From: Candidatus Bathyarchaeota archaeon
Lineage (GTDB): Archaea; Thermoproteota; Bathyarchaeia; 40CM-2-53-6
Length of the DNA: 61,237 nt
Assembly: GCA_005883075.1 (NCBI GenBank)
Contig: VBAX01000050.1
Coordinates: 3,226-64,462, forward strand
Reading direction: 5' to 3'
This document shows positions 2,795-44,047 of this stretch, one piece after another. Numbering within the stretch: position 1 is the first letter of the stretch; each line of letters opens with the position of its first letter. Both the position numbers and the translations under genes were made by a program. A model generated the notes under the pieces. That model was given only the letters and a program-made list of their open reading frames with translations. It had not been told where the DNA came from and did no database searches.

Positions 2795-3227
2795 GTAAGT
2801 TGCCTTTTTGGGAAACTACCTTTTTGAGGTAACAAGGTTATTAGAATGTCGGCATCATGCCTGTCTAAGAAGGCAGCCCATTCCTATGGGCACGCTCGGG
2901 ATGGTTGATATGAACATGCTAGCCATCTTATCCATTCCTACGGAAAAGAGTATACTTCTACGCTAAACGACCTCAAAATACCCCTCCAGCCGCTTTTCTA
3001 CCGGGATGCTATTTAACTGAAACAACGGAATATGGTAAATTCCATGGCCCCTGTTCACGCCTCCGCATCAACATCCCACTTCGTAACCATCGATTGAAAC
3101 TAAGCCCTTCCGCCGTGCAAATTTTTCGTCCAGCAATCTCTTTCAAAATAAGCATTCTTTCTCGACCCCCGGGGGTGGTCGATTTTCCCGCGCCCCGCCC
3201 TTCGTGGCGCGAAACAAAACCGGATAT

Positions 3228-3439
3228 GGAATCGCCCATTATCAGCCCTGATCTAGAATCTGGCGCGATGGCCGTTAATTGCATAGCAAACCGTTCTTGA
3301 CGACTTGTTAAAACGCCATCTGATCCAAGCCTGGTCTGTGCCCTGAATCGCCTTTCTTGCCAATAATCACTGGCAGACAGCGAATTTTCTCTAGCCTAGG
3401 GGGGTCTTAGCGATCGACTCTCGCGACGCAAAAGAGGCG
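3228..3439 (+). repeat. Dispersed ~215-bp intergenic element, copy A
   Basis: Aligns by eye along its length with 32060-32274 (+) and 40121-40345 (-). Confidence 0.85.
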
Positions 3440-3522
3440 AATCTGGAGAGCACGCAAAAACTAAACTCGCCTGCCTGACACGCTGTCAAGCAGAGACCGA
3501 CGCGAGTAAGGCGAGTATCAGC

Positions 3523-3927
3523 CTAGTCGGTCGGCGAAGGACGCTGCGACATGCCGGCCTGACCTGTCCCGGAAGCGGTCCCAGGTCGCATCTCGAGCTG
3601 GCTCATAACCATGAGCAAACTGCGAATCTCGTCGATACTACGGAGGTTCGTCTGCAACTGATTCCGATATTCCTCCCTCGTCGACTTATACTCCTGCTCA
3701 GGAATATCGCCGGACATAAAACGGCTCTCCAAGCCAAGCAGGTTCTGGGGAGCATTAGTAACTTGATCCCTGAGATCCCGGACCCTTCGGGTAAGATTCT
3801 CGCCGAGCTGGGCCATCTTTTCAGCCATAGCCCGATTGGCCCTGGTGTATTCCTCCTTCAGCATAGCTAGCCTCTGGCGGAAACCGTTGATCTCAGTAAC
3901 TACCTTGTCTATCGCTACCTCACTCAT
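3523..3927 (-). CDS. Coiled-coil hypothetical protein (possibly CdvA-like/SHOCT-type motif)
   Basis: Heptad-rich helical sequence with an ESRFMSGDIPEQEY segment. Confidence 0.6.
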   Translation of the reverse strand: MSEVAIDKVVTEINGFRQRLAMLKEEYTRANRAMAEKMAQLGENLTRRVRDLRDQVTNAPQNLLGLESRFMSGDIPEQEYKSTREEYRNQLQTNLRSIDEIRSLLMVMSQLEMRPGTASGTGQAGMSQRPSPTD

Positions 3928-4025
3928 CTGATCGCACCGAAGAGTAGGCTGAGAGACGATAAAGCCGGAATTACAGCTGTTGTAACCAGAAACGCTGAGA
4001 AACAGTAACCTAAGATCGAGAAGAG

Positions 4026-4280
4026 CTAATGCTTTTCGTCAGGCTTCGAACCGGTTCCAGTAGTGCTTGGCTCAGCTTCCAACGGTGCCGGAGGCGGAGT
4101 TGTGAGCATTGTCCAGCCTATCCATCCTGTTATGCCAAGGATTCCTAGAACTCCCAGGACGACTGGGATCTCGATTGCATACGTCCGCCACGGTTCACCC
4201 GTCAAAGAAATCAAATAGACGATGAACACGATCGCGGAGACAGCGAATATCAGACCGCCATAGGACTGGTCTTTGTTCAA
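4026..4280 (-). CDS. Small two-TM membrane protein
   Basis: Two hydrophobic segments followed by a TPPP tail; lies downstream of thrS. Confidence 0.7.
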   Translation of the reverse strand: MNKDQSYGGLIFAVSAIVFIVYLISLTGEPWRTYAIEIPVVLGVLGILGITGWIGWTMLTTPPPAPLEAEPSTTGTGSKPDEKH

Positions 4281-4350
4281 GTCAAGCTATCACTTATCGC
4301 GACCGGCTATGAAAGGGTGCATATAAATTGCTTATTCTCCCTCGCTCAAC

Positions 4351-6195
4351 TTACATTCTCTTGTAGCCCGGACGCTGAGAGAGCAAGACTGGATAGGTAA
4401 GAGGCCTTACCGGGTATCCTTCAACTTCACCCTTGAGTCGTTTCAAGAACGCGGTCAAACCGATCTTGCTCTCCTTTGAATCGGCCCTCGATCTGACCGA
4501 GAGCTGCTTTGTCTTGATCTCTTTTTCCCCGTAGATCACAATGAAAGGTATCCAGCTGAGCTCAGCGTCGCGCACCTTACTCTGCATCGTATCATCTCGA
4601 TCATCGAGATCAGCTCTAATCCCAGCCTTCTCCAGTGTGCCGAGTAGTTTCATTCCTTGTTTAACGAACTGTTGCGCGACCGGGATGATTCGAACTTGGG
4701 TTGGTGAGACCCAGACCGGAAGCATCGGTTTCCTGCCCTGTCTCTCCAAACGAACCGCGGAATCAAGAAGAGTGAAGAGGTATCGTTCCAGTCCACCTAT
4801 CACGGCTGTGTGAATGATTACGGGGAACTGCTTCTCGCCCTTCTCATCCGCATATGCTATTCCGAACCGTTTCGCGTTTCCGACGTCGATCTGAAAAGTC
4901 CCGATCTCCCGAGGTCTATCCAGATCGTCTATGATATTGTACTCCACGTTTAGGACCCAGTAGTACAGCCCTTCAGGAACGAAGTTGAGCAGTATCGGCT
5001 TCTTCTCCACCTTCACCAGTTCCATGAACGCGTCTTTGTTTGCATCAAAGAATGATCGTGTAGTGTTGTAGAGCGAGACGTATTCTCTGTTCAGCTTCCT
5101 GATCTCTTCATAGATCGTACGATGTATCTTGTCTCCGATCCGTATCGCTTCGGCGACACTCTTCAGGTAGATGTGCAAATCAGGCATGAGAAATTTTCTT
5201 AGCCTGAAAGAGAGGAGCAACTCGCCGCTCTGCTCCATTCTGTAGCTATCCGCTACCTCGAACGTCCCGAACGGCAGTGTCCGGTAGCTTAGAGTCCAGT
5301 CTTTGACCATTGAGAATTGCTGGAAGCATGCAGCGTATCTCAGAACAAATGTTCTCTCGTCCACCTTCACCTCGTAGGCTCTGTACCCGACCAGTTGGAG
5401 GTGTTCTTTTATCGGCTTTACTGCGACATCGAACATGTTGGTTCCTTTCACGTTCAGTATCGGGATACCAATCCGTCGGATTACTTGTCCCGCATATTCT
5501 GCCAGTAGGTCCATTATCAGGTTGGACTCGGGTCCGAACCTCATTTGACCCACATCCGCAAAGGATTCCCACTCGATACCGAGTCGACGGGCATAATCCA
5601 GAAAATGCGGCTCGCCTCCTGTCAGCCCCTTCTTGAGAGCTTCTTTTTCGACAAGAGACTTGAATTCGGCGTCATGCGGCCCGAAGAAGAAATCTTCCGG
5701 CGAGTGTAGTTTTCCCTCCCGGTCCATGATGACATATTCGGTCTTGACCGCAGGCGCAGCCTGTCGTGATTTCGTATCCACTGTAATGGTTCTAGAAAGC
5801 TCGGATAGAGGATGTCCCTTAGCGGTTATCGTGAAGCTCTTGTACCATCCGAAGGGGCTTCTGCTAACCTCGTACCCCTTCTGAGCGAGCTTTTCTTCCA
5901 AGGCCTTGAGGATCGAGATTGCCGGCTCGCGGGAGCTCGTCGACAAATGGGCGTATGGATACACCATCACCTTCTTTGTCTTCAGCCATCCTAGTACCTC
6001 CTCAATTGAAGAGGCCGCGTTTGATGCGATCTGGTCAGGCTCTTGCTCGTCATTCTTCTCGACAGTCGAGAAGACGACAAGACCGTTCTCGAGGGTCCCC
6101 CTCTTGTGCGACTCGTCGAGAGGTTCAGGTTCTTTCACTGCCTTTTCTCGGGCTTCGTATTCGAATCGATCTGCATGAACTAAAAGGAGTCTCAT
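4351..6195 (-). CDS. thrS: Threonyl-tRNA synthetase, archaeal type with N-terminal editing domain
   Basis: MRLLLVHAD editing-domain start; YAACF, MPDLH and IHTA zinc ligands; C-terminal anticodon-binding domain. Confidence 0.96.
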   Translation of the reverse strand: MRLLLVHADRFEYEAREKAVKEPEPLDESHKRGTLENGLVVFSTVEKNDEQEPDQIASNAASSIEEVLGWLKTKKVMVYPYAHLSTSSREPAISILKALEEKLAQKGYEVSRSPFGWYKSFTITAKGHPLSELSRTITVDTKSRQAAPAVKTEYVIMDREGKLHSPEDFFFGPHDAEFKSLVEKEALKKGLTGGEPHFLDYARRLGIEWESFADVGQMRFGPESNLIMDLLAEYAGQVIRRIGIPILNVKGTNMFDVAVKPIKEHLQLVGYRAYEVKVDERTFVLRYAACFQQFSMVKDWTLSYRTLPFGTFEVADSYRMEQSGELLLSFRLRKFLMPDLHIYLKSVAEAIRIGDKIHRTIYEEIRKLNREYVSLYNTTRSFFDANKDAFMELVKVEKKPILLNFVPEGLYYWVLNVEYNIIDDLDRPREIGTFQIDVGNAKRFGIAYADEKGEKQFPVIIHTAVIGGLERYLFTLLDSAVRLERQGRKPMLPVWVSPTQVRIIPVAQQFVKQGMKLLGTLEKAGIRADLDDRDDTMQSKVRDAELSWIPFIVIYGEKEIKTKQLSVRSRADSKESKIGLTAFLKRLKGEVEGYPVRPLTYPVLLSQRPGYKRM

Positions 6196-29636: not shown

Positions 29637-30677
29637 TTGAGAGGATTGATACTTGCTGGAGGTTTCGCAACAAGACTGCGACCACTCAGTTGCTCTAAGC
29701 CGAAGTTGTTATTTCCGATCGTTGGCACGCCTCTCGTTGAATTGATGGCACGCTGGCTCAGCTCCGGTGGAGTTGATCAGATAATCCTAGCAGTAAATCA
29801 CCTTTCAGATAAGTTGAAGATCGAAGTAGGTCGCCATGTTGCAGGCGTGACGGTCAAGTTTTCAGTAGAGGAAACGCCTCTGGGAACTGCAGGCCCGATC
29901 CGGCTTGCGGCCAATCTTCTGGGCAAGGACGACCCATTCTTCGTTACAAACGGTGACATAGTGAGCGATATCGAGATTAGGCGCATGCTGGAGATGCACG
30001 AAGAGACAAATGCAGAGGCAACAATGGCGGTGGTTTCCGTCCCTGACCCATCCCCTTACGGCTCAGTCTTGACCGATTCCAACGGGAAGGTGAAAGAGTT
30101 CGAGGAAAAATCGGCGGTTCTCTCGGCCGCGAGTCATGTGAATGCTGGAGTATACGTCCTCAGTCAGAGCGTTATTGATTCTATACCAGGCGGCCGATCA
30201 GTCAGTCTAGAGAATGAAGTTTTCCCTAAGTTAGTTCGGAATGGGCGGATGCAGTCGTGGATGCACAAGGGATTCTGGTATGACATCGGAAGAGTTTCAG
30301 AATATGTGCGGGCCAACCATGAGCTCTTGCAGAAGCAAGAGCTAAAGGCCACAAAACCCGGTGCAAGCGAAGTCGGGAGGGAGATTTTGCGGCCTTCATA
30401 TTTGGGCACACGGACTCACATAGGAGTGGGCGCGAAGGTGGGACCTCTTGCGATTCTCAGCGACAACGTGAGTGTTGGAGATGAAGCAATCGTGCGGAAT
30501 TCAATAATATTTGAAGAAACATCGATTGGTGAAAAGGTCGCTGTCGAAGGCTCGGTCATCGGAGAGAGGGTGGTAATCGGTAAGGGATCGAGAATAGGCC
30601 ATGGGTCAATGATAGCTGGACAGCTAAGCATCCCCGAGGGATCAATTGTGCCGCCGAACTCGGTTATTCTCTGCTAG
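29637..30677 (+). CDS. NDP-sugar synthase (mannose-1-phosphate guanylyltransferase-like) with hexapeptide tail
   Basis: LAGGFATRLRPL, PKLL, LGTAG and NGDI motifs; C-terminal left-handed beta-helix. Confidence 0.92.
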   Translation: MRGLILAGGFATRLRPLSCSKPKLLFPIVGTPLVELMARWLSSGGVDQIILAVNHLSDKLKIEVGRHVAGVTVKFSVEETPLGTAGPIRLAANLLGKDDPFFVTNGDIVSDIEIRRMLEMHEETNAEATMAVVSVPDPSPYGSVLTDSNGKVKEFEEKSAVLSAASHVNAGVYVLSQSVIDSIPGGRSVSLENEVFPKLVRNGRMQSWMHKGFWYDIGRVSEYVRANHELLQKQELKATKPGASEVGREILRPSYLGTRTHIGVGAKVGPLAILSDNVSVGDEAIVRNSIIFEETSIGEKVAVEGSVIGERVVIGKGSRIGHGSMIAGQLSIPEGSIVPPNSVILC

Positions 30678-30678
30678 A

Positions 30679-32058
30679 ATGGAGGCGAAGGAAATTAGCA
30701 GATTCGTGAAGGCGCCAAGACTATTCGGAACCAACGGGATTAGGGGGGTCGCTGGCAAGGAGATCGACTCCGCCTTAGCTTTCCGTGTCGGTTCAGCTTT
30801 GGGAACTCTCTTTCCTAAGCACAAAATACTGATCGGCAGGGATGGTCGGATTTCTAGTCCTATGCTCCTAGAAGGGGTAGCTGCAGGTCTACTCGCTCAT
30901 GGGAATAGTGTAGAAGATCTCGGTTTGATCACAACGCCAGCGTTGGAATTTCTAGTGAAGAATACCGCCTCTTCGGCGGGAGTGATGATTACTGCAAGCC
31001 ACAACCCTCCCGAGTACAACGGATTCAAGGTGGTTGATTCTGACGGGATCGAGATCGATCGTTCAAAGGAGGAAAAAATGGAGCTACTGATTCATCGAGA
31101 CAAATGGCAGGCTAGTTATCAGTCAGGTCAGCGCGTGAGAAACGAGGGAGGAATAAGGTCCTATTTCGAGAAGGTTCAGACCCATGTCTTTGCTAGGGAC
31201 GGAATCGGAAATCTGAAGATTGTCATTGATACAGGTAACGGAGTTGCAGAACTTACTACCCCGAGCTTGCTTAGGAAGTTTGGAGCTCACGTGATCGGTA
31301 TTAATGATGTGATTGATGGCGAGTTTCCCGGTCGCAATTCGGAGCCGCGGCCCGAAAACCTAGGAGCTCTCTCGAGGATTGTCAGAGAGGAAAAGGCCGA
31401 CCTAGGAATTGCTCATGACGGGGACGGAGATAGGGCGATCTTTGTCGACGAGACGGGTATAGTTCAGCCGGGGGATCGGACTCTTGCACTTATCGAGGAC
31501 GAGTTGTTGAGGGATCATCCCGGCGCGAAGGTTGTAACGCCCATCAACACTTCAATGGTAGTATCGGAGATCGCTAGCAAGAGAAAGGGCAAACTGATCC
31601 TGACTAAGGTGGGGAGTATCGAGGTCGCAAGAACAGTCGAAAGAGTGGGTGCGTTGTTGGGTGGGGAGGAAAACGGCGGTATCTTCTATGCTCCTCATCA
31701 TCCCGTCAGGGACGGGACAATCGCAGCAGTCCTAGTTGTGAATGCAATCATTAGGAATGGTAAATCTCTTTCCAAGTTGCTTGATGGGCTTCCCAAGTTC
31801 TACATGGTCAAGGAGAAAATTCCCTGCAAGGAAGGGGGAAAGGACCGCGCGATCAAGTCCCTCGAGGCTATACTCAAAGGCAGAATATCCAGCAGCCTCG
31901 ATGGTATACGAGTGGACCTGGAGGGACGAGGATGGATTCTGGTTCGCGCCAGTGGCACCGAGCCTTTGCTTAGGCTATACGTTGAAGCGAAGACTGAGAG
32001 CCATGTCCAAGAGATACTAAACGAATTTCGACCCCTAGTGGTGAAAGCGTCAAGGTGA
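30679..32058 (+). CDS. Phosphomannomutase/phosphoglucomutase
   Basis: FGTNGIRG, TASHNP, DGDGDR, GEENGG and RASGTEP motifs. Confidence 0.94.
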   Translation: MEAKEISRFVKAPRLFGTNGIRGVAGKEIDSALAFRVGSALGTLFPKHKILIGRDGRISSPMLLEGVAAGLLAHGNSVEDLGLITTPALEFLVKNTASSAGVMITASHNPPEYNGFKVVDSDGIEIDRSKEEKMELLIHRDKWQASYQSGQRVRNEGGIRSYFEKVQTHVFARDGIGNLKIVIDTGNGVAELTTPSLLRKFGAHVIGINDVIDGEFPGRNSEPRPENLGALSRIVREEKADLGIAHDGDGDRAIFVDETGIVQPGDRTLALIEDELLRDHPGAKVVTPINTSMVVSEIASKRKGKLILTKVGSIEVARTVERVGALLGGEENGGIFYAPHHPVRDGTIAAVLVVNAIIRNGKSLSKLLDGLPKFYMVKEKIPCKEGGKDRAIKSLEAILKGRISSSLDGIRVDLEGRGWILVRASGTEPLLRLYVEAKTESHVQEILNEFRPLVVKASR

Positions 32059-32059
32059 T

Positions 32060-32274
32060 GGAAACTCGCCCCGAAACACGCCCTGATCTTCCATCCGGGA
32101 GCCCCTAGGCAACTCTCACGAAATTCGTTCGGAATTGTCGACTTCTTTCCATTTTCATCCCAGCCAGGATTGTGGCCGGAATCGCCTATCTCGCCCATTA
32201 TCACTGCCAGACAGGAAATGGTTTTCGGAAAATAGGGGGTCTTAGCGACCGACCCTCGCGTCGCAAGAGCGGCC
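32060..32274 (+). repeat. Dispersed ~215-bp intergenic element, copy B
   Basis: Homologous to 3228-3439 and to the reverse complement of 40121-40345; begins 1 nt after the phosphomutase stop. Confidence 0.85.
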
Positions 32275-32539
32275 TTTCCGGACATTAGTGAAGTAACCTT
32301 TCGGGGCTTATCATCTACCTCAAACCCTGTAGAATTGCGTGCTAGTAGCCCTGATCTCCAATCTGCTCATCGTTTCCACAGACTGCCTAAGAAATGGGCT
32401 AGAATACCGCGTTACTCGGCAAGGGTGATTTGTCCAGTCACGCTAGCAGGTCATTTCCGATACGTCACATGACCATCAAACCTGAGTCGGTATAGCCGTG
32501 CACAAATGTGGGTCGCCCCGCGGTTCCGGTCAGGTGTGT

Positions 32540-33337
32540 CTAGATTGGACTTGCGTCTGACCAGCGTTTGTCAAACGCGTCGGCGAAGACTCGTATCATC
32601 CCGTTGTTCTTGGTGAAGTGTGGGCGGAAGAACTTTGGCCGTCGTCCATTTCTTTCATTCGTAGCCCATATGAGGAACACGAGCTCCTTGTCGTCAGACA
32701 AAGTACCTCTTACAGGATACCAATCTTCCCTGGGTTGTCGAACCTCTATGCCCAATCCCATTGCCTCTCGGGCTCTGGAGACCGCCTCAGGATCTTTCGC
32801 GGTCATTAGGAGTCGGAATTTCACTTTCCTCTCGACTGCGCGATAGATTTCTTCTTTGACCTTCCCGAACCAGCCGAAGGTCTCCGCAGAGATCGAGATC
32901 TTTCTAGAGGCGTTGGCGATCACCTTGACCGTCCTAGTCTCCATCTCTTCAAGCGTCGGCAACGGTTCTAGAAGATCCTCCGGTTTGACCCCCAGTCGTA
33001 GCTCCCAATACTGAGGTTCCAACAAGGACAACAACCTCGTACTCTTGGCGTTCAAATTGTCAAGATCTCTCGACATCTCCGTCCTTTTCATGTCCTGGAT
33101 CCTAGCCACGAACTGTTTGGGCTCGGACGCTTCGAGCTTGTTGCTGCTAACCACGACAATACCCTTCTCGACAAGCTCCTTAACCGCTCTTTCCGCATCT
33201 CGCGTTGAGAAGCTTGAATGAGCTAGAATCTGCTCGATAGTCTCACCTGAGGGCTTCTCTAAGAGGGAGAAGTAGATTGAGCATCCTTCTTTCGAGAAAC
33301 CGAGTTCTTCCATGAGTTTTTGGGCTTCGTCATTCAA
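32540..33337 (-). CDS. TrmB-family transcriptional regulator
   Basis: N-terminal wHTH (LGFSKE..IYFSLL) plus a PLD-like effector domain (LSDDKE). Confidence 0.85.
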   Translation of the reverse strand: MNDEAQKLMEELGFSKEGCSIYFSLLEKPSGETIEQILAHSSFSTRDAERAVKELVEKGIVVVSSNKLEASEPKQFVARIQDMKRTEMSRDLDNLNAKSTRLLSLLEPQYWELRLGVKPEDLLEPLPTLEEMETRTVKVIANASRKISISAETFGWFGKVKEEIYRAVERKVKFRLLMTAKDPEAVSRAREAMGLGIEVRQPREDWYPVRGTLSDDKELVFLIWATNERNGRRPKFFRPHFTKNNGMIRVFADAFDKRWSDASPI

Positions 33338-33373
33338 TCCTGGAGTCGCCTTCGGCCTAAGAATCGACAGCCA

Positions 33374-33637
33374 TCAAGTAGACGTTGGCAGAGGGAAACC
33401 TCTACAGTCAACGTTCCCTTTCACTCGCCGAATAAAGTTGGGACATGCGAAGCACTGCGCAAAAGAAACGGTCTTCGAGAGCACTGGACAGTCGACAGCT
33501 TCCTTCTTCATTCTCGCTAGCTGTTTCCCTCCGACAACTCCTTTTAGATCTTGAACATACTGTTTTGGAGTCGTGGGGCTTTTTTCGGGAACGGTGACTT
33601 CCACAACGTACTTTGCTTGAGGAAGGTCTTCGCTCAT
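33374..33637 (-). CDS. Small Cys4 metal-binding hypothetical protein
   Basis: VDCPV...CFACPNF...VDC; directly upstream of trmB. Confidence 0.7.
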   Translation of the reverse strand: MSEDLPQAKYVVEVTVPEKSPTTPKQYVQDLKGVVGGKQLARMKKEAVDCPVLSKTVSFAQCFACPNFIRRVKGNVDCRGFPLPTST

Positions 33638-33719
33638 CTGCTTCCAGTCGCCCGCTCCGGGCTAGACTGCTAATTATCCCTTTGTTACTAGAGAACGTCT
33701 ACTCGGCCCGAAGCATAGG

Positions 33720-34208
33720 CTAGTCCTTTAGCTTATCTTTCGGCAGCCCGATTGAAGCGCCTTCCAACAGGGACTTCGCTTTGTCGAGAACGGTCCGGAA
33801 TTCCCTCTGCTCCTCCAGAGTCATTGAATGTTGTTGTTCCATCATTTTTGCCAGTGCCTTTGCAGTGAGCATCATCAGCGGGAGAAAGACCTCGCGCTCT
33901 TTCCCAGGGATAGCCCTATAGACGTAAGGATTGGATTCTGTAAGTACAGAAGCTTCCGCCGAGTATGCCCCTGTCCGCTTAATGTGGTACAGCCCTGCGT
34001 AGATACTTATCGGAACAATGATGAGAATGCCGACAATTCCAAACTCGTAAAGGTGAGGGAATATATTGTGAATGACAGGCACGCCGACGACGGCGAGTGC
34101 ATAGATTATTATCATCGTGCTCGCAAAGCCCAACGGGAAGGCAACGTAAGTTCCGTAGCCTATCCGGAAGTAGTACCAGCTTCGAAAGATCAACCTAGTG
34201 AGATTCAT
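33720..34208 (-). CDS. Membrane hypothetical protein
   Basis: Two TM segments; FRSWYYFRIGY N-terminus. Confidence 0.75.
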   Translation of the reverse strand: MNLTRLIFRSWYYFRIGYGTYVAFPLGFASTMIIIYALAVVGVPVIHNIFPHLYEFGIVGILIIVPISIYAGLYHIKRTGAYSAEASVLTESNPYVYRAIPGKEREVFLPLMMLTAKALAKMMEQQHSMTLEEQREFRTVLDKAKSLLEGASIGLPKDKLKD

Positions 34209-34239
34209 TGTCAGCCCGACACAAACGCTGCGCCTAACG

Positions 34240-34250
34240 TTTATATGAAA
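34240..34250. promoter_or_regulatory. TATA-like box serving divergent genes
   Basis: TTTATATGAAA lies about 32-35 nt from both ATG 34208 (-) and TTG 34281 (+). Confidence 0.5.
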
Positions 34251-34280
34251 TATCGGTCGACGGACAGTTCAGGAAGGCAC

Positions 34281-34646
34281 TTGGAGAAACGGCTCTTTCT
34301 ACTTCCTTTCGTTTGGGTCGTTTTCGGCCTTGGCTTGGTTTATGGCCTCAGATTCCTACTCGGACCCATTGTAAACATAGTTCCCACCATCTCCAATGAC
34401 AAGCCTATTGGCGGTTCGATCTTCTCCGTCCTATTCTTCAGTGTCGCCGCGGTGCTGGGAGTTCTAGCCGTGAGCCTATATTCCCTAGGCATCTGGAACG
34501 TAGACTTGTCGAGGAGAAAGGACAAAGCGGATCTTGGAGCCCTGCTTGTGTTGGTAACCGGAGGCCTGCTGCTTTGGTATGTTCCTCTGGCTTTCTTCGC
34601 CGTCGTCGCCTCCGTAGTCTATTTGCTTGCTGTGAACATCGAGTAG
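34281..34646 (+). CDS. Small multi-TM membrane protein (real part of track ORF 33828..34646)
   Basis: Hydrophobic helices start at TTG 34281; the upstream part of the ORF is antisense to another gene. Confidence 0.7.
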   Translation: MEKRLFLLPFVWVVFGLGLVYGLRFLLGPIVNIVPTISNDKPIGGSIFSVLFFSVAAVLGVLAVSLYSLGIWNVDLSRRKDKADLGALLVLVTGGLLLWYVPLAFFAVVASVVYLLAVNIE

Positions 34647-37795: not shown

Positions 37796-38104
37796 CTAGT
37801 GAAGCTCTATGCTAGTCTCAGGAAACCCGTATCCGACCAGGACTTTTTTCACTTTGTCGCGGTGGTCTCCTTGCAGGATGATCGCATTGTTCTTCGAGGT
37901 CCCGCCACACGCGCAGTATGTCTTGAGTTTCGTTGCTAGATCCGGAAGGTCTACGCTCTTCCCATCGATGCCCTCAACTATGGTCGCCGGTTTCCCCCAT
38001 TTTCGCATTTCCATACGCACCTTTACCGTCTGCTGCTCCATGCTGATAGTGCCGCAGACGCACAGGTCTTTTGGAAGGCCGCAGGTAGAACAGACGTCGG
38101 CCAT
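37796..38104 (-). CDS. sui1: Translation initiation factor 1 (SUI1)
   Basis: CSTCGLP..LC.C, KWGK.ATI, CACGG and LQGDHR motifs. Confidence 0.95.
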   Translation of the reverse strand: MADVCSTCGLPKDLCVCGTISMEQQTVKVRMEMRKWGKPATIVEGIDGKSVDLPDLATKLKTYCACGGTSKNNAIILQGDHRDKVKKVLVGYGFPETSIELH

Positions 38105-38190
38105 TCTAGAAGCCAGGTGCTCCCTTGTAATCGTCCACGGAGATTCTATCGCTGGCTTGCGTATTTAAGCGTGCCTTCAGAAACGATGGA

Positions 38191-38325
38191 TTAGACGCCC
38201 AGGTACAGAAAGAAGAGGAACCAGAACAGCCAAGCCATCCCTAGAGCAAGAATTATCGTCGTCCTTTCGGTCATCCTTTTCCTTATGTACCCTATATCCT
38301 GGAGTAAAATCCGGATTGTAACCAT
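38191..38325 (-). CDS. 44-aa single-TM small protein (below the ORF track cutoff)
   Basis: My translation: MVTIRILLQDIGYIRKRMTERTTIILALGMAWLFWFLFFLYLGV*. Confidence 0.5.
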   Translation of the reverse strand: MVTIRILLQDIGYIRKRMTERTTIILALGMAWLFWFLFFLYLGV

Positions 38326-38521
38326 GGGAACGGTGGGGGCCAAATCTTGGGCAGGGGGCAGCGAGATTGAGCCTCCGTCCGTTTAATGCTTCAAGTCTCT
38401 CTGTATTGCCATGGGTTTCCAGCGCTTTCCAGAAGGGTCGTGGAGGTTTAGTCGGCTCTAGGGGCTATCGATAAATAGGTATAGCCGGTATATACGACAA
38501 GGCGACTGAGAAGGTTCTCGA

Positions 38522-38770
38522 TTGAGTGAGCGGATAACCGTTTCGATTGAGCTGGAGTTCTTTAACAAATACCTGTTCAACGCATTGAAGAGGAGTCTCT
38601 ACAATGCGAATCCGAAGAAAAAACTGGATATTATCTACTACTACTCTAGGGATCCGCGGGTGAAATTCTCCATTTCTATGACAGGATATAGTACGACGAA
38701 GCCGAATCCATCACCACAATGGGCCACAGTGTTCAACAATATTCAGAGCATGCGCCAGTACCTTCGCTAG
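38522..38770 (+). CDS. 82-aa orphan hypothetical protein
   Basis: TATATA at 38489-38494 about 28 nt upstream of the TTG; ends convergent with tfb. Confidence 0.5.
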   Translation: MSERITVSIELEFFNKYLFNALKRSLYNANPKKKLDIIYYYSRDPRVKFSISMTGYSTTKPNPSPQWATVFNNIQSMRQYLR

Positions 38771-38779
38771 AACCTGGGG

Positions 38780-39712
38780 TTAGGCATTCAGGCCAAGGGC
38801 GTCTTTCAGGCCCTTGTACCTATTCCGAACGGTTACTTCGGTGACGTTCGCAATCTCTGCGATCTCTTTCTGAGTCTTCTTCTCTCCTTGAAGAACACAA
38901 GCAACATACAGCGCTGCTGCAGCTAGGCCCATCGGATCCTTTCCGGCCACAACTCCCTTCTTTCGTGCGTCTTTCAGTACTTGAATCGCTGACTGCTGTG
39001 TTTGTATTGTGATCTCGGCTCTGCTGGCAATTTTTGATATGCAACGAACTGGGTCTTCGACTGGCATCGACATTTCTAGCTCTCTAAGTAGGAGGCGGTA
39101 GCAACGCGCGACGTCTTTCTTCTTGATTCTGCTTGCCGATGCCACCTCCTTGAGGGTTCGGGGGGTCTCGCTGGATCGGCATGCTGCGTAGAGCGATGCG
39201 GCTGCTATTGCGGCAATTGAGCGTCCTCTGACAAGTCCGTTTTCGAGCGCCTTTCTGTATACGACTGCTGAGTCTTCTTTGACGTTGGCGGGTACGTGTA
39301 ACCTGTCGGTTAGACGGTCCAGCTCGGCCATTGCTTGGGCTAGGTTGCGGTCAGATGATGAGTGAACTCTTGTCCGGATTTGCCATTTCCGGAGACGGAG
39401 CATTTCCATTCTTGTCTCGAAGGGTAATTGTCTTCCGAACGCGTCTCTGTTGACTCGGTCGATGACGGTTGAGAGCCCCTTGTCGTGGATGGAGAAGGAA
39501 GTTGGTATTCCGACGCGGCCTCTCTCGTCCTTTTCTTCCTTAGTGAAAGCTCGCCATTCGGGTCCGCGACTCATCAGATTCTGGGACAGAACTAAGCCGC
39601 AGTCTTGGCAGATGGTTTCGCCTTGGTCGAAGTCTTCTATTAGGTTGAGGCTTCCGCATTCGGGGCAAACGTGAACTTTGGGTGGGTGTGCGCTTGGGGA
39701 TGGTGTGCTCAT
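38780..39712 (-). CDS. tfb: Transcription initiation factor IIB
   Basis: CPECG...CQDCG Zn ribbon, GPEWRAF and two cyclin repeats (GRSIAA, GKDPMG). Confidence 0.97.
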   Translation of the reverse strand: MSTPSPSAHPPKVHVCPECGSLNLIEDFDQGETICQDCGLVLSQNLMSRGPEWRAFTKEEKDERGRVGIPTSFSIHDKGLSTVIDRVNRDAFGRQLPFETRMEMLRLRKWQIRTRVHSSSDRNLAQAMAELDRLTDRLHVPANVKEDSAVVYRKALENGLVRGRSIAAIAAASLYAACRSSETPRTLKEVASASRIKKKDVARCYRLLLRELEMSMPVEDPVRCISKIASRAEITIQTQQSAIQVLKDARKKGVVAGKDPMGLAAAALYVACVLQGEKKTQKEIAEIANVTEVTVRNRYKGLKDALGLNA

Positions 39713-39824
39713 GGTTCTTGCCTAGGTTTCCGCGGACAGTGTGCGTCCCCGCTTCCTGGACTCGTTTGGGACGGCGCTTTAGAAGAGTCCAAGCTCGGAA
39801 AGCGAAAGCGACGCGTTCGATTTC

Positions 39825-39840
39825 AAATATAAGTGTTTCG
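39825..39840 (-). promoter_or_regulatory. BRE-TATA candidate for tfb
   Basis: The minus strand reads CGAAACAC-TTATATTT, implying a leader of about 90 nt. Confidence 0.4.
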
Positions 39841-40120
39841 ACAAGTATATAGGCTAGGTCGGGTTCCGACGCGCTCTCCGTGCAACCGATTTCGGGTGGT
39901 CCGATTGCAGGTGGGACCAGCACTTGCGTAGTAAGATGCTCTACGCCATACCCCCCCCAGTTGCGAGAGCGTTCCCTTCGAGCGAGATCTCCTTGCTAGT
40001 CTCGCGATTCAGAATCCAGTCCAGGCTTTGATCGAAAGGCAAGAAGACAAGACTCCTTCCACCAGTTCCGAACGCTTTCTTGGGCAGAATGAATTCCGGC
40101 TTTCCGACTCTTCTCTTCAA

Positions 40121-40345
40121 CCACTCTTGCGTCGCGAGGTGCCCTGCTCTTATCCCCGCCTCCCGTTTTCTAGAGAAGATTTTCTGTCTGGCATTGATAA
40201 TTGGCGAGACCGGCGGGTCAGGGCGTCATCCGGGTTTAGATGATAAGGGAAAACACGGGAAATATATGGCCGTTTCCGAACGATTTCCCGCGAGTTGTTA
40301 AGGGATTCCCAGATTCGAGATCAGGGCTGATTCTGGGCGATTTGC
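40121..40345 (-). repeat. Dispersed ~215-bp intergenic element, copy C
   Basis: The reverse complement shares AATCGCCC..ATCAGCCCTGATCT, GCCAGACAG and CTCGCGACGCAAGAG blocks with copies A and B. Confidence 0.85.
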
Positions 40346-40782: not shown

Positions 40783-41397
40783 TTAGAAATTCTTCAGCTC
40801 CGAACTCCAGAACCTTCGCAGAAGGAGCCCCGTGACAAGACCTCCGATATGCGCAAAGAACCCTCCCCCAGCGAAAATGTCCAAACCGACGATGAATATG
40901 ATCAAGACGACGCCTCGGAGCCCAGTTGCTGCCCCCATTATGCCGTAGACCGCACCTGAGGCGCCGACCCCGCAACTCAAGTAGAGAGAGTTGGGGAAGC
41001 CGGTAAGAAAAAATCCGGCAAGATCGGCCCCCACGAAGGTTAGGTTCCCCGCGATACCAGTGAGAAAAAAAGTGGTCATCCAACGGGTTTTCGTAACCTG
41101 TTCTTCAAGAATGAACCCGAAGAGTAACAGAAATAGGATATTGCTCGCGATATGGATGATACTCGCATGAAGAAAAATTGAAGTCACCAAAGTCCATGGA
41201 TAGATAGGTAATGGTCCGTCGCACTGGGCCAGAAATTGAAGTACGGACGAGGGTGTCGAGAGAGGACTGATAAAGTCCCCTACCAGGAACCCAATAACTA
41301 CGTAAACACAGATGAGTATGAGGGAAAAGACGAAAGTTGGGGAGGTCAGGTGTGGGTTTGATTTCTTCTCTACAGACGCTTGGATATTTTCGGGCAC
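40783..41397 (-). CDS. Rhomboid-family intramembrane serine protease
   Basis: FLHASIIHIASN, GASGAVY and AHIGG motifs. Confidence 0.93.
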   Translation of the reverse strand: MPENIQASVEKKSNPHLTSPTFVFSLILICVYVVIGFLVGDFISPLSTPSSVLQFLAQCDGPLPIYPWTLVTSIFLHASIIHIASNILFLLLFGFILEEQVTKTRWMTTFFLTGIAGNLTFVGADLAGFFLTGFPNSLYLSCGVGASGAVYGIMGAATGLRGVVLIIFIVGLDIFAGGGFFAHIGGLVTGLLLRRFWSSELKNF

Positions 41398-43420: not shown

Positions 43421-44047
43421 TTAGGACTCGTCCAGGAGCTGTTTCTTCTCTTCGAGGGAGAGTTCTTCAACATACACGGCCGTCGCCCTCAAGTCTTTAT
43501 GTCCCATGAGACTCTGGACTTTCCAAGGGTCCCTACCGGTCTTTCTAGCCCAGAATGTCCCGAAATAGGCACGTTGACGGTGATTGTGGAGACGATCCCA
43601 GTCGGGAACACCCGCGAGTTTTGCATATTTTCGCAGGATGTTTGTTCCATGTTGTTCTGAGAGAGAGATAATCCTCTCGCCCATCTGAGCCTTTGAGGCG
43701 AGTTTCTGAGCAAGTCTAAGCCACTTCCTCCCAGGATAATCGGGTTCTGTTTTTCCTCCTTTGAAGTGAATCATTATTGTCTCCTCACCCACGTCCTCTT
43801 TCCTTATTCCCGGAAGATCCACGATACACACAACCCTCTCCCCGGTCCTCTTCCTTGTGTAGGTTACCTTGTTATGGCAACCCACAATGCTCCCGATGCG
43901 CCATCCGCGCTCGAGTTGGAGCCCTAAGAGAAGGTGATCTCGAGGAACTGCCTGGGCCAACTCGATCATGCGATTCTTTTGAGAGTCTGATATTCGTGTC
44001 TCGCCTCGTCCGTCTCTACTTATTCGCATCTGAGAACTCGCCAGCAA
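43421..44047 (-). CDS. Tyrosine recombinase/integrase, catalytic domain only (about 202-208 aa)
   Basis: R (GWRIGSI), K (KGGK), H-x-x-R (HRQR), H (LMGH) and Y (TAVY) appear in order. Confidence 0.9.
   Translation of the reverse strand: MLASSQMRISRDGRGETRISDSQKNRMIELAQAVPRDHLLLGLQLERGWRIGSIVGCHNKVTYTRKRTGERVVCIVDLPGIRKEDVGEETIMIHFKGGKTEPDYPGRKWLRLAQKLASKAQMGERIISLSEQHGTNILRKYAKLAGVPDWDRLHNHRQRAYFGTFWARKTGRDPWKVQSLMGHKDLRATAVYVEELSLEEKKQLLDES

Follow-up and report, generated by a model that had tools for sequence, protein, structure and literature searches.

A genus-wide family of polar, non-coding repeats of about 240 bp in the intergenic regions of soil Bathyarchaeia

Introduction

Bathyarchaeia are abundant, uncultured archaea whose mobile DNA is, to our knowledge, almost uncharacterized. 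The stretch of DNA analysed here, 61,237 nucleotides in all and referred to below as the window, lies on contig C98 of a soil Bathyarchaeota metagenome-assembled genome (MAG; 1.90 Mb, 147 contigs, 52% GC, 88% complete) and includes genes for CdvA, TFIIB and an archaeal-type ThrRS. An earlier note on the window described three intergenic copies (A, B and C) of a diverged non-coding element, and proposed a REP/MITE-like family, a structured RNA or a protein-binding chromosomal element as possible explanations. The locus thus raises the question of what kind of element this is, how it came to occupy several intergenic regions, and whether it persists for its own sake or for that of its host. Below, G000 denotes the window's own MAG, labels such as G001, G005, G007 and G008 denote other genomes compared, and C followed by a number denotes a contig; window coordinates are C98 coordinates minus 3225.

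Results and discussion

Copies of the element in the window

Copies A, B and C are homologous, with 72% column identity in a three-way alignment, and they lie at the positions and on the strands given in the earlier note when placed with R1, a sequence-only covariance model that was also used to search related genomes. The count of three needs to be extended by a degenerate tandem copy (C′) and a head fragment downstream of B, both previously overlooked:

3229–3437, + strand: copy A core, from head AATCGCCCATTATCAGCCCTGATCT to CGCAAAAGAGG (R1, 149 bits)
32060–32308, + strand: copy B with its conserved 3′ extension (core 32063–32272; R1, 133 bits)
32332–32365, + strand: solo head fragment GAATTGCGTGCTAGTAGCCCTGATCTCCAATCTG (repeat search, and a head-HMM match at C98 35572–35590)
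39918–40090, − strand: degenerate tandem copy C′, covering model positions 54–227 (nhmmer E=1.1e-13; R1, 39.9 bits)
40121–40343, − strand: copy C (R1, 130 bits)

Copy A is located between a hypothetical gene (2111–2794, −) and cdvA (3523–3927, −), with its tail facing the cdvA stop, and has orthologues beside cdvA in G001, G008, G016 and G018 as well as a partial one in G017. Copy B starts 1–5 nt past the TGA of a PGM/PMM gene (30646–32058, +), and its tail faces a TrmB-like gene (32540–33337, −). Its 3′ extension ends in ...GTGAAGTAACCTTTCGGGG, and the tail ...GTGAAAGTAACCTT is conserved in the B orthologues, which occupy the identical place and orientation in at least eight other species (PGM 79–94% identical); the orthologue is decayed in G021 and G008, and in a distant clade of the genus the copy at this locus is reversed. 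The solo head fragment, approximately 270 nt downstream of the B head and conserved in G001, appears to be what is left of a second tandem unit. Copy C lies between a rhomboid gene (40783–41397, −) and the TFIIB gene (38780–39712, −), co-oriented with both, and is followed directly, head to tail, by C′. Copies at the C locus, upstream of TFIIB, are also present in eight species (G001, G021, G019, G005, G008, G011, G007 and G017).

A second, unrelated dispersed repeat, consisting of a GC-rich hairpin and a T-run (TCTCGACCCCCGGGGGTGGTCGATTTTCCCGCGCCCCGCCCTTCGTGGCG), was observed at 3153–3218 (+), about 20 nt upstream of the A head. It is paired with the 240-bp element also at C70, C136 and C76 of G000, sits at C75 and at 96.3 kb of C83, where G000 is without the 240-bp element, and has about 10 more copies elsewhere in this genome.

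An old, genus-wide family

The similarity of A, B and C goes well past chance: with an HMM trained on just these three, a further 48 full-length matches were recovered in G000, with E values from 1e-16 to 1e-49. As the earlier note had anticipated, the element is thus present in many copies genome-wide, the 1.9 Mb containing 48 full-length copies and about 8 partial ones, or roughly 0.7% of the genome. R1 matches were found in 21 of the 21 other genomes searched from the genus, with at least 58 in each of many of them and at least 55 in each of G000, G001 and G008; the repeat occurs about 50 times per genome within the genus. Outside the genus, two of the three other genera searched from the family also gave matches, and 16 genomes belonging to different families of the order gave none. 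We found nothing alike in Bathyarchaeia in a literature search or in a 2024 review of prokaryotic MITEs (PMC10969869), and the repeat family is apparently undescribed so far.

The copies of G000 are diverged from one another, with a median pairwise identity of 0.62 and no pair above 0.95, and there has thus been no recent burst of copies. A second subfamily, of about 12 copies, has only the head in common with the standard unit, and the tail in part, and is often located directly upstream of a standard unit. Two near-duplicate copies with near-identical flanks, at C9 281–518 and C95 265–501 on two short contigs, most likely represent strain variants or a duplication in the assembly instead of two loci. 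Of the 48 copies, four lie less than 600 nt from a contig end.

A polar unit without terminal repeats

The full unit is about 240 nt long, the heads of tandem copies being 238–247 nt apart. The unit thus extends some 25–45 nt further at its 3′ end than the coordinates of the earlier note. It is polar, with a sharp 5′ head followed by an internal partial head repeat, a G-run, a 3′ block and a variable tail. In the consensus, the head AAATCGCCCATTATCAGCCCTGATCTCGAATCTGG is followed by a variable block, ATCGTTCGG, another variable block, ATCCAAGCCTGG..GCCCTGAATCGCC.GTCTCGCCCAT(T/A)ATCA.TGCCAGACAG, AGAAAA, the G-run, TCTT, CCTCGCGACGCAAGAGTGG and finally a tail of 25–45 nt that differs by subfamily; the 3′ block ahead of the tail reads CTCGCGACGCAAGAG / CCTCGCGACGCAAGAG. 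The shared blocks previously listed for A, B and C are all present in the three-way alignment. The motif TCGCCCAT(T/A)ATCA occurs twice per unit, at about consensus positions 12–24 and 145–157, and hence the recurrence of the 5′ motif is real, with a spacing of about 134 nt and not 125. Conservation is block-wise; the head holds a 12-bp palindrome (ATCAG-CC-CTGAT), and the terminal near-palindrome CTCGCG-W-CGCAAGAG, also noticed earlier, is conserved, with 88% of its cells pairable.

The 5′ edge, at AAATCGCCC, is exact: across one copy, G016 and G001 match G000 at about 95% identity, and precisely at this sequence the similarity ends. At the ends of the unit, the head (its start also given as AAATCGCCCATTATCAGCCC) and the tail (...CCTCGCGACGCAAGAGTGG) are not complementary, and a repeat search for terminal inverted repeats (TIRs) returned only inverted matches between copies. 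Nor was there a sign of target-site duplication (TSD), as the longest word common to the 5′ and 3′ flanks had a mean length of 4.44 compared with 4.51 ± 0.13 in permutations (n=48).

The element as RNA, protein or promoter

The block-wise conservation of the family and its size of about 210–250 nt are what a family of structured non-coding RNA genes might display, and such a reading had been offered for A, B and C. It is refuted as far as sequence analysis reaches, and we now give it almost no credence. RNAalifold yielded −1.77 and −1.61 kcal for the two strands of the 48 copies, the averaged pair-probability map contained no base pair with a mean probability above 0.28, and fold stability did not depart from that of dinucleotide shuffles (MFE z of +0.23 and +0.22 for the two strands). 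In two explicit hairpin models, covariation beyond shuffles was found neither in the near-palindrome nor in an alternative tetraloop hairpin. A search of Rfam gave no match at gathering thresholds and only chance-level matches at E values up to 5.

Two further candidates were rejected. The copy lengths (224–247 nt) are not multiples of three, the variable columns of orthologues fall 40/38/42 by codon phase with no three-base periodicity, and no copy in G000 overlaps an open frame of at least 200 aa, all of which speaks against a small ORF or other coding role. A promoter in the head was set aside as well, the promoter-region hexamers enriched in this genome being TTAAAT, TATATA and CTTAAA and not the head motif. 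The ATTATCA motif of the head resembles the TTTATC boxes upstream of a few tRNA genes (aragorn found only 10 tRNAs in the genome).

Age, turnover and recombination between copies

Judged by their positions in related genomes, A, B and C are old, since each is found at the same locus in several species, and the comparisons show that most loci were occupied already before the species split. The detail of change at these loci emerges from 20 copies of G001, with flanks about 90–94% identical, that were compared with G000. Five loci hold a monomer in one genome and a dimer in the other, the extra unit starting exactly at the head. At two loci the element is gone from G000 or replaced by another repeat, while G001 and an outgroup retain it, and one copy differs by an internal deletion. 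Two segments, of 4.4 and 5 kb, are inverted between inverted copies (C96 5807/10454 and C33 40876/46047), G000 having the derived state according to the outgroups. Since every genome has retained a copy at either end of both segments, the inversions are products of recombination between resident copies. Replicative transposition was rejected as their cause on the same grounds, G001 and the outgroups carrying the element at both ends.

Copies are also often altered in place. The bodies of copies at the C locus differ strongly even between G000 and G001 while the flanks are unchanged, which indicates that bodies have been overwritten by other members of the family; at C54 and C40, the 5′ two-thirds of the copies differ between the same two genomes. 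Mosaic pairs of copies switch partner at positions 38–45, 172–190 and 204–219, which are edges of conserved blocks. A site-specific crossover at the internal head repeat was considered and rejected, as only 2 of 29 mosaic change points fall at positions 151–160.

We found one clean filled/empty site. At C30 of G000, a unit of about 245 nt is present 1 nt past a stop codon, and the corresponding site in G021 is empty, with no clear target duplication. G001 is filled here too, and the outgroup G014 has a copy in the same intergenic region; the difference may therefore be a loss in G021 and not a gain. Three further candidate empty sites, at C75, C83 and C144, proved to be intergenic regions that are remodelled or hold a different repeat.

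Gene context and the case for a host function

The copies are intergenic, often 1–50 nt from stop codons, and head-to-tail dimers also occur. According to crude ORF calls, the flanking genes are convergent at 17 of 44 copies, tandem at 18 and divergent at 9, and a stop codon is faced by the tail in 29 of 44 copies and by the head in 26 of 48. The earlier note had taken the varied context of A, B and C as an argument against a shared cis-regulatory role, and the genome-wide counts bear this out to the extent that a role with fixed orientation is unlikely.

A function for the host is the most probable of the alternatives, although we consider it unlikely on balance. The element might be a DNA or 3′-UTR element selected at fixed loci, either as a set of protein-binding blocks or as a two-way transcription stop or insulator. 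Occupation of the same loci across many species would fit such a role, as would the block-wise conservation with its head palindrome, the share of copies between convergent genes, the closeness of the ends to stop codons, and a conserved C-run followed by T4 (AAGACCCCCC..TTTTCT) on the strand that is read by genes converging on the tail. Most suggestive is locus B, where the element is more conserved than four-fold degenerate sites of the adjacent PGM gene (identity 0.75 versus 0.45 between G000 and G007, and 0.78 versus 0.58 in the comparison with G005). Together with the persistence of the family's conserved blocks across species with saturated silent sites, this suggests constraint, which would fit a host function as well as it fits a selfish element; either selection or continued exchange among like copies maintains the sequence. 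The argument from constraint is counterbalanced by the freedom with which copies elsewhere are replaced and lost: they are exchanged for different subfamilies (C locus), lost, swapped for another repeat or truncated. In addition, the copies have no fixed orientation relative to the genes beside them, T4 terminates transcription only weakly in archaea, and the head motif, as noted above, is not among the promoter-region hexamers.

A one-sided GC skew

A property that sets the two sides of the element apart is the GC skew of its surroundings. In G000, the skew of the element strand is strongly negative only 60–2000 nt downstream of the tail (means −0.12 and −0.095; 38 of 42 and 39 of 44 copies have a negative value, with p about 1e-7 to 1e-9), with nothing comparable upstream of the head or beyond 5 kb. 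The three copies of the window conform (3500–5499 for A, 32340–34339 for B and 37900–39899 for C, the downstream gene of C being co-oriented with the element), and so do two of four further loci in other genomes. A regional replication signal was rejected as the source: a test with 20-kb skew was positive for 33 of 44 copies, but the distance-resolved signal is confined to the 60–2000 nt downstream.

The ordinary explanation would be that most tails point towards the 3′ ends of genes whose coding strand is G-rich. The coding-strand skew varies between genes of these genomes from −0.19 to +0.24, and the coding strand of the PGM gene is G-rich (+0.08 to +0.24) in all clades, whether it is the head or the tail that faces the gene. 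The skew would reflect either gene orientation or composition, or a polar mutational footprint.

If it were the latter, it is tempting to speculate about a DNA transaction that starts at a site and depends on direction. The head would be cleaved by a putative enzyme (an unannotated nickase, or the XerA-like recombinase described below), and copying would then run from head to tail. Head-to-tail repair of variable extent could account for the sharp edge, the tandem gain of whole units and the overwriting from the head onward, and repeated single-strand exposure on one side, beyond the tail, might leave the element strand C-rich over about 2 kb downstream (39 of 44 copies). We regard this as a speculative and rather improbable reading.

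Search for a mobilizing enzyme

The earlier note had seen no clear TIRs, TSD or transposase, and this agrees with the end comparison, the flank permutations and the enzyme searches, the last of which covered MAGs that are 52–95% complete, such that an enzyme gene may be missed. The Y1 HUH transposase (PF01797) was found in 0 of 41 genomes, its controls being positive in 6 of 14 reference genomes. None of G000, G001 and G008, all of them rich in the repeat, has TnpB. A resolvase (serine recombinase) and a reverse transcriptase were each found in 1 of 22 genomes and IS110 in 2 of 22, in no case in G000. No Y1, TnpB, serine-recombinase, reverse transcriptase or IS110 gene tracks the family across the genus. 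In G000, head-to-tail pairs enclosing a gene were likewise absent, each pair being about 170–185 nt apart.

TnpB genes themselves (Cas12f1-like_TNB; noted for G007, G016, G017, G018, G019 and G021) run to 11–19 copies per genome in certain species of the genus and are missing from others, the one studied here included. These tnpB-only elements have no visible transposase, given that Y1 TnpA is missing from all 41 genomes.

These searches bear on the possibility that the family is a PATE-type derivative. PATEs are non-autonomous derivatives of IS200/IS605 that keep the subterminal hairpins and need the Y1 transposase, which moves them as single-stranded DNA. Like PATEs, the family has asymmetric ends, no TIR, no TSD and a polar unit, and a number of genomes in the genus are rich in TnpB-only elements. 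Unlike PATEs, it shows no hairpin or fold signal at either end (with RNA energy parameters) and no Y1 gene in 41 genomes, and the repeat is abundant in three genomes that lack TnpB; this reading is already largely refuted. Furthermore, only one of six tnpB loci has a copy nearby, and non-tandem neighbouring copies on the same contig point in opposite directions more often than in the same direction (10 versus 5, in a fragmented assembly with no known origin), in contrast to replication-polar IS200/IS605 insertions. We therefore hold a PATE origin to be very improbable.

The sole tyrosine recombinase detectable in G000 is encoded in the window itself, approximately 3 kb from copy C (43421–44047, −; 208 aa). 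It is XerA-like and very divergent, scoring 32 bits with Pfam, 34 bits with the NCBIfam XerA model (cut-off 220) and 16.9 bits with an integron-integrase model. Perhaps, then, the element is a unit-length cassette moved by a site-specific recombinase of this kind, with circles of one unit re-inserting at resident heads. Such a mechanism would account for the dimers, for the overwriting and for a head with a sharp edge, and it would fit indels that are unit-sized and start exactly at a head, the synteny break exactly at the head, and the inversions between inverted copies. The mosaic change points, however, cluster where conserved blocks begin or end, a pattern that homologous exchange would produce and one crossover site would not, and no 11-6-11 dif-like core was seen, nor any evidence of circles. 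Across most of the genus the gene, which is conserved and lies in the window by chance, occurs once and in syntenic position, as a housekeeping enzyme for dimer resolution would. A recombinase-driven cassette accordingly strikes us as improbable.

Two ORFs beside heads were considered as enzyme candidates and discarded. One, of 362 aa (G016 and G001), has no Pfam match; the other, of 357 aa (G001), has only weak cupredoxin-like matches and is unrelated to the first. The 362-aa ORF is 100% identical in the MAGs of two species (L007 1789–2877, G016:C25; L037 50–1135, G001:C83) and lies 66 nt from a copy head; it is absent from G000, which has unrelated genes there. The segment could be a recent transfer, or these contigs could be shared between bins.

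Comparison with known repeat families

BOX and RUP of Streptococcus pneumoniae and ERIC/IRU of enterobacteria are non-coding intergenic units of 100–250 bp present in tens to hundreds of copies. BOX, ERIC and RUP have an inverted-repeat or hairpin character and stable RNA or DNA folds, and RUP has TIRs and a TSD. The Bathyarchaeia family is like these in being intergenic, modular or mosaic, genus-restricted, non-coding and found without a known mobilizing enzyme, and unlike them in having no fold, TIR or TSD, in being strictly polar, in forming head-to-tail dimers and in being archaeal. By analogy, it appears to behave most like BOX, ERIC and RUP, that is, as a selfish, non-coding and recombinogenic repeat.

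Integron gene-cassette arrays offer a different parallel, whole head-to-tail units being gained or lost at a precise boundary; unlike them, the family is without an integron integrase, a folded attC or an ORF, and is dispersed over about 50 loci instead of forming one array. The earlier suggestion of a REP/MITE-like family holds only loosely, for an undescribed dispersed family. REP, REPIN and BIME sequences are built on a palindrome of 20–40 nt and depend on a RAYT, whereas the present unit is about 240 nt long and non-palindromic, and PF01797, which covers RAYTs, is absent. As for MITEs, those of archaea have been reviewed for Sulfolobus (SM-type), Halobacterium and Haloquadratum walsbyi, with none from Bathyarchaeia (PMC10969869). 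Like them, the family consists of short, non-autonomous intergenic repeats that drive rearrangements; unlike them, it lacks all that defines a MITE, as TIRs, a TSD and a parent IS with matching ends were each looked for and not found.

The favoured reading

Taken together, the element is probably one of an old, genus-wide, non-coding and non-autonomous family of interspersed repeats of about 240 bp in soil Bathyarchaeia, which we treat as selfish DNA. The family would first have spread by insertion of whole units through a mechanism that recognized the head, as we infer from the sharp 5′ edge and the single clean filled/empty site of 245 nt; no recognizable enzyme for head-directed insertion is encoded in G000. 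Ordinary homologous recombination and gene conversion could explain most of the present dynamics, namely the gain and loss of units beside a resident copy, the overwriting of bodies, the internal deletions and the 4–5 kb inversions between inverted copies.

Several observations weigh against this account of a selfish repeat family. Neither near-identical paralogues nor an autonomous element were found, such that any present mobility would be putative, the clean filled/empty site is the only one, the conservation at locus B suggests constraint, and the downstream skew is not accounted for.

Implications for Bathyarchaeia

Recent inversions and indels that separate sister species have their breakpoints at copies of the family, which thus shapes genome structure in this lineage. 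The copies by contig ends suggest that it may also break MAG assemblies. As the family fits neither MITEs, REPs nor IS200/IS605 derivatives and has no visible enzyme, it points either to a new route of mobilization in archaea or to repeats that are kept by recombination alone. The direction-dependent transaction outlined above, if true, would make the family a mobile or recombination element of a kind new to archaea, one that leaves a mutational footprint on the genes around it. Should the downstream skew be a genuine footprint of mutation, it would connect a repeat element with strand-biased mutation in the genes beside it.
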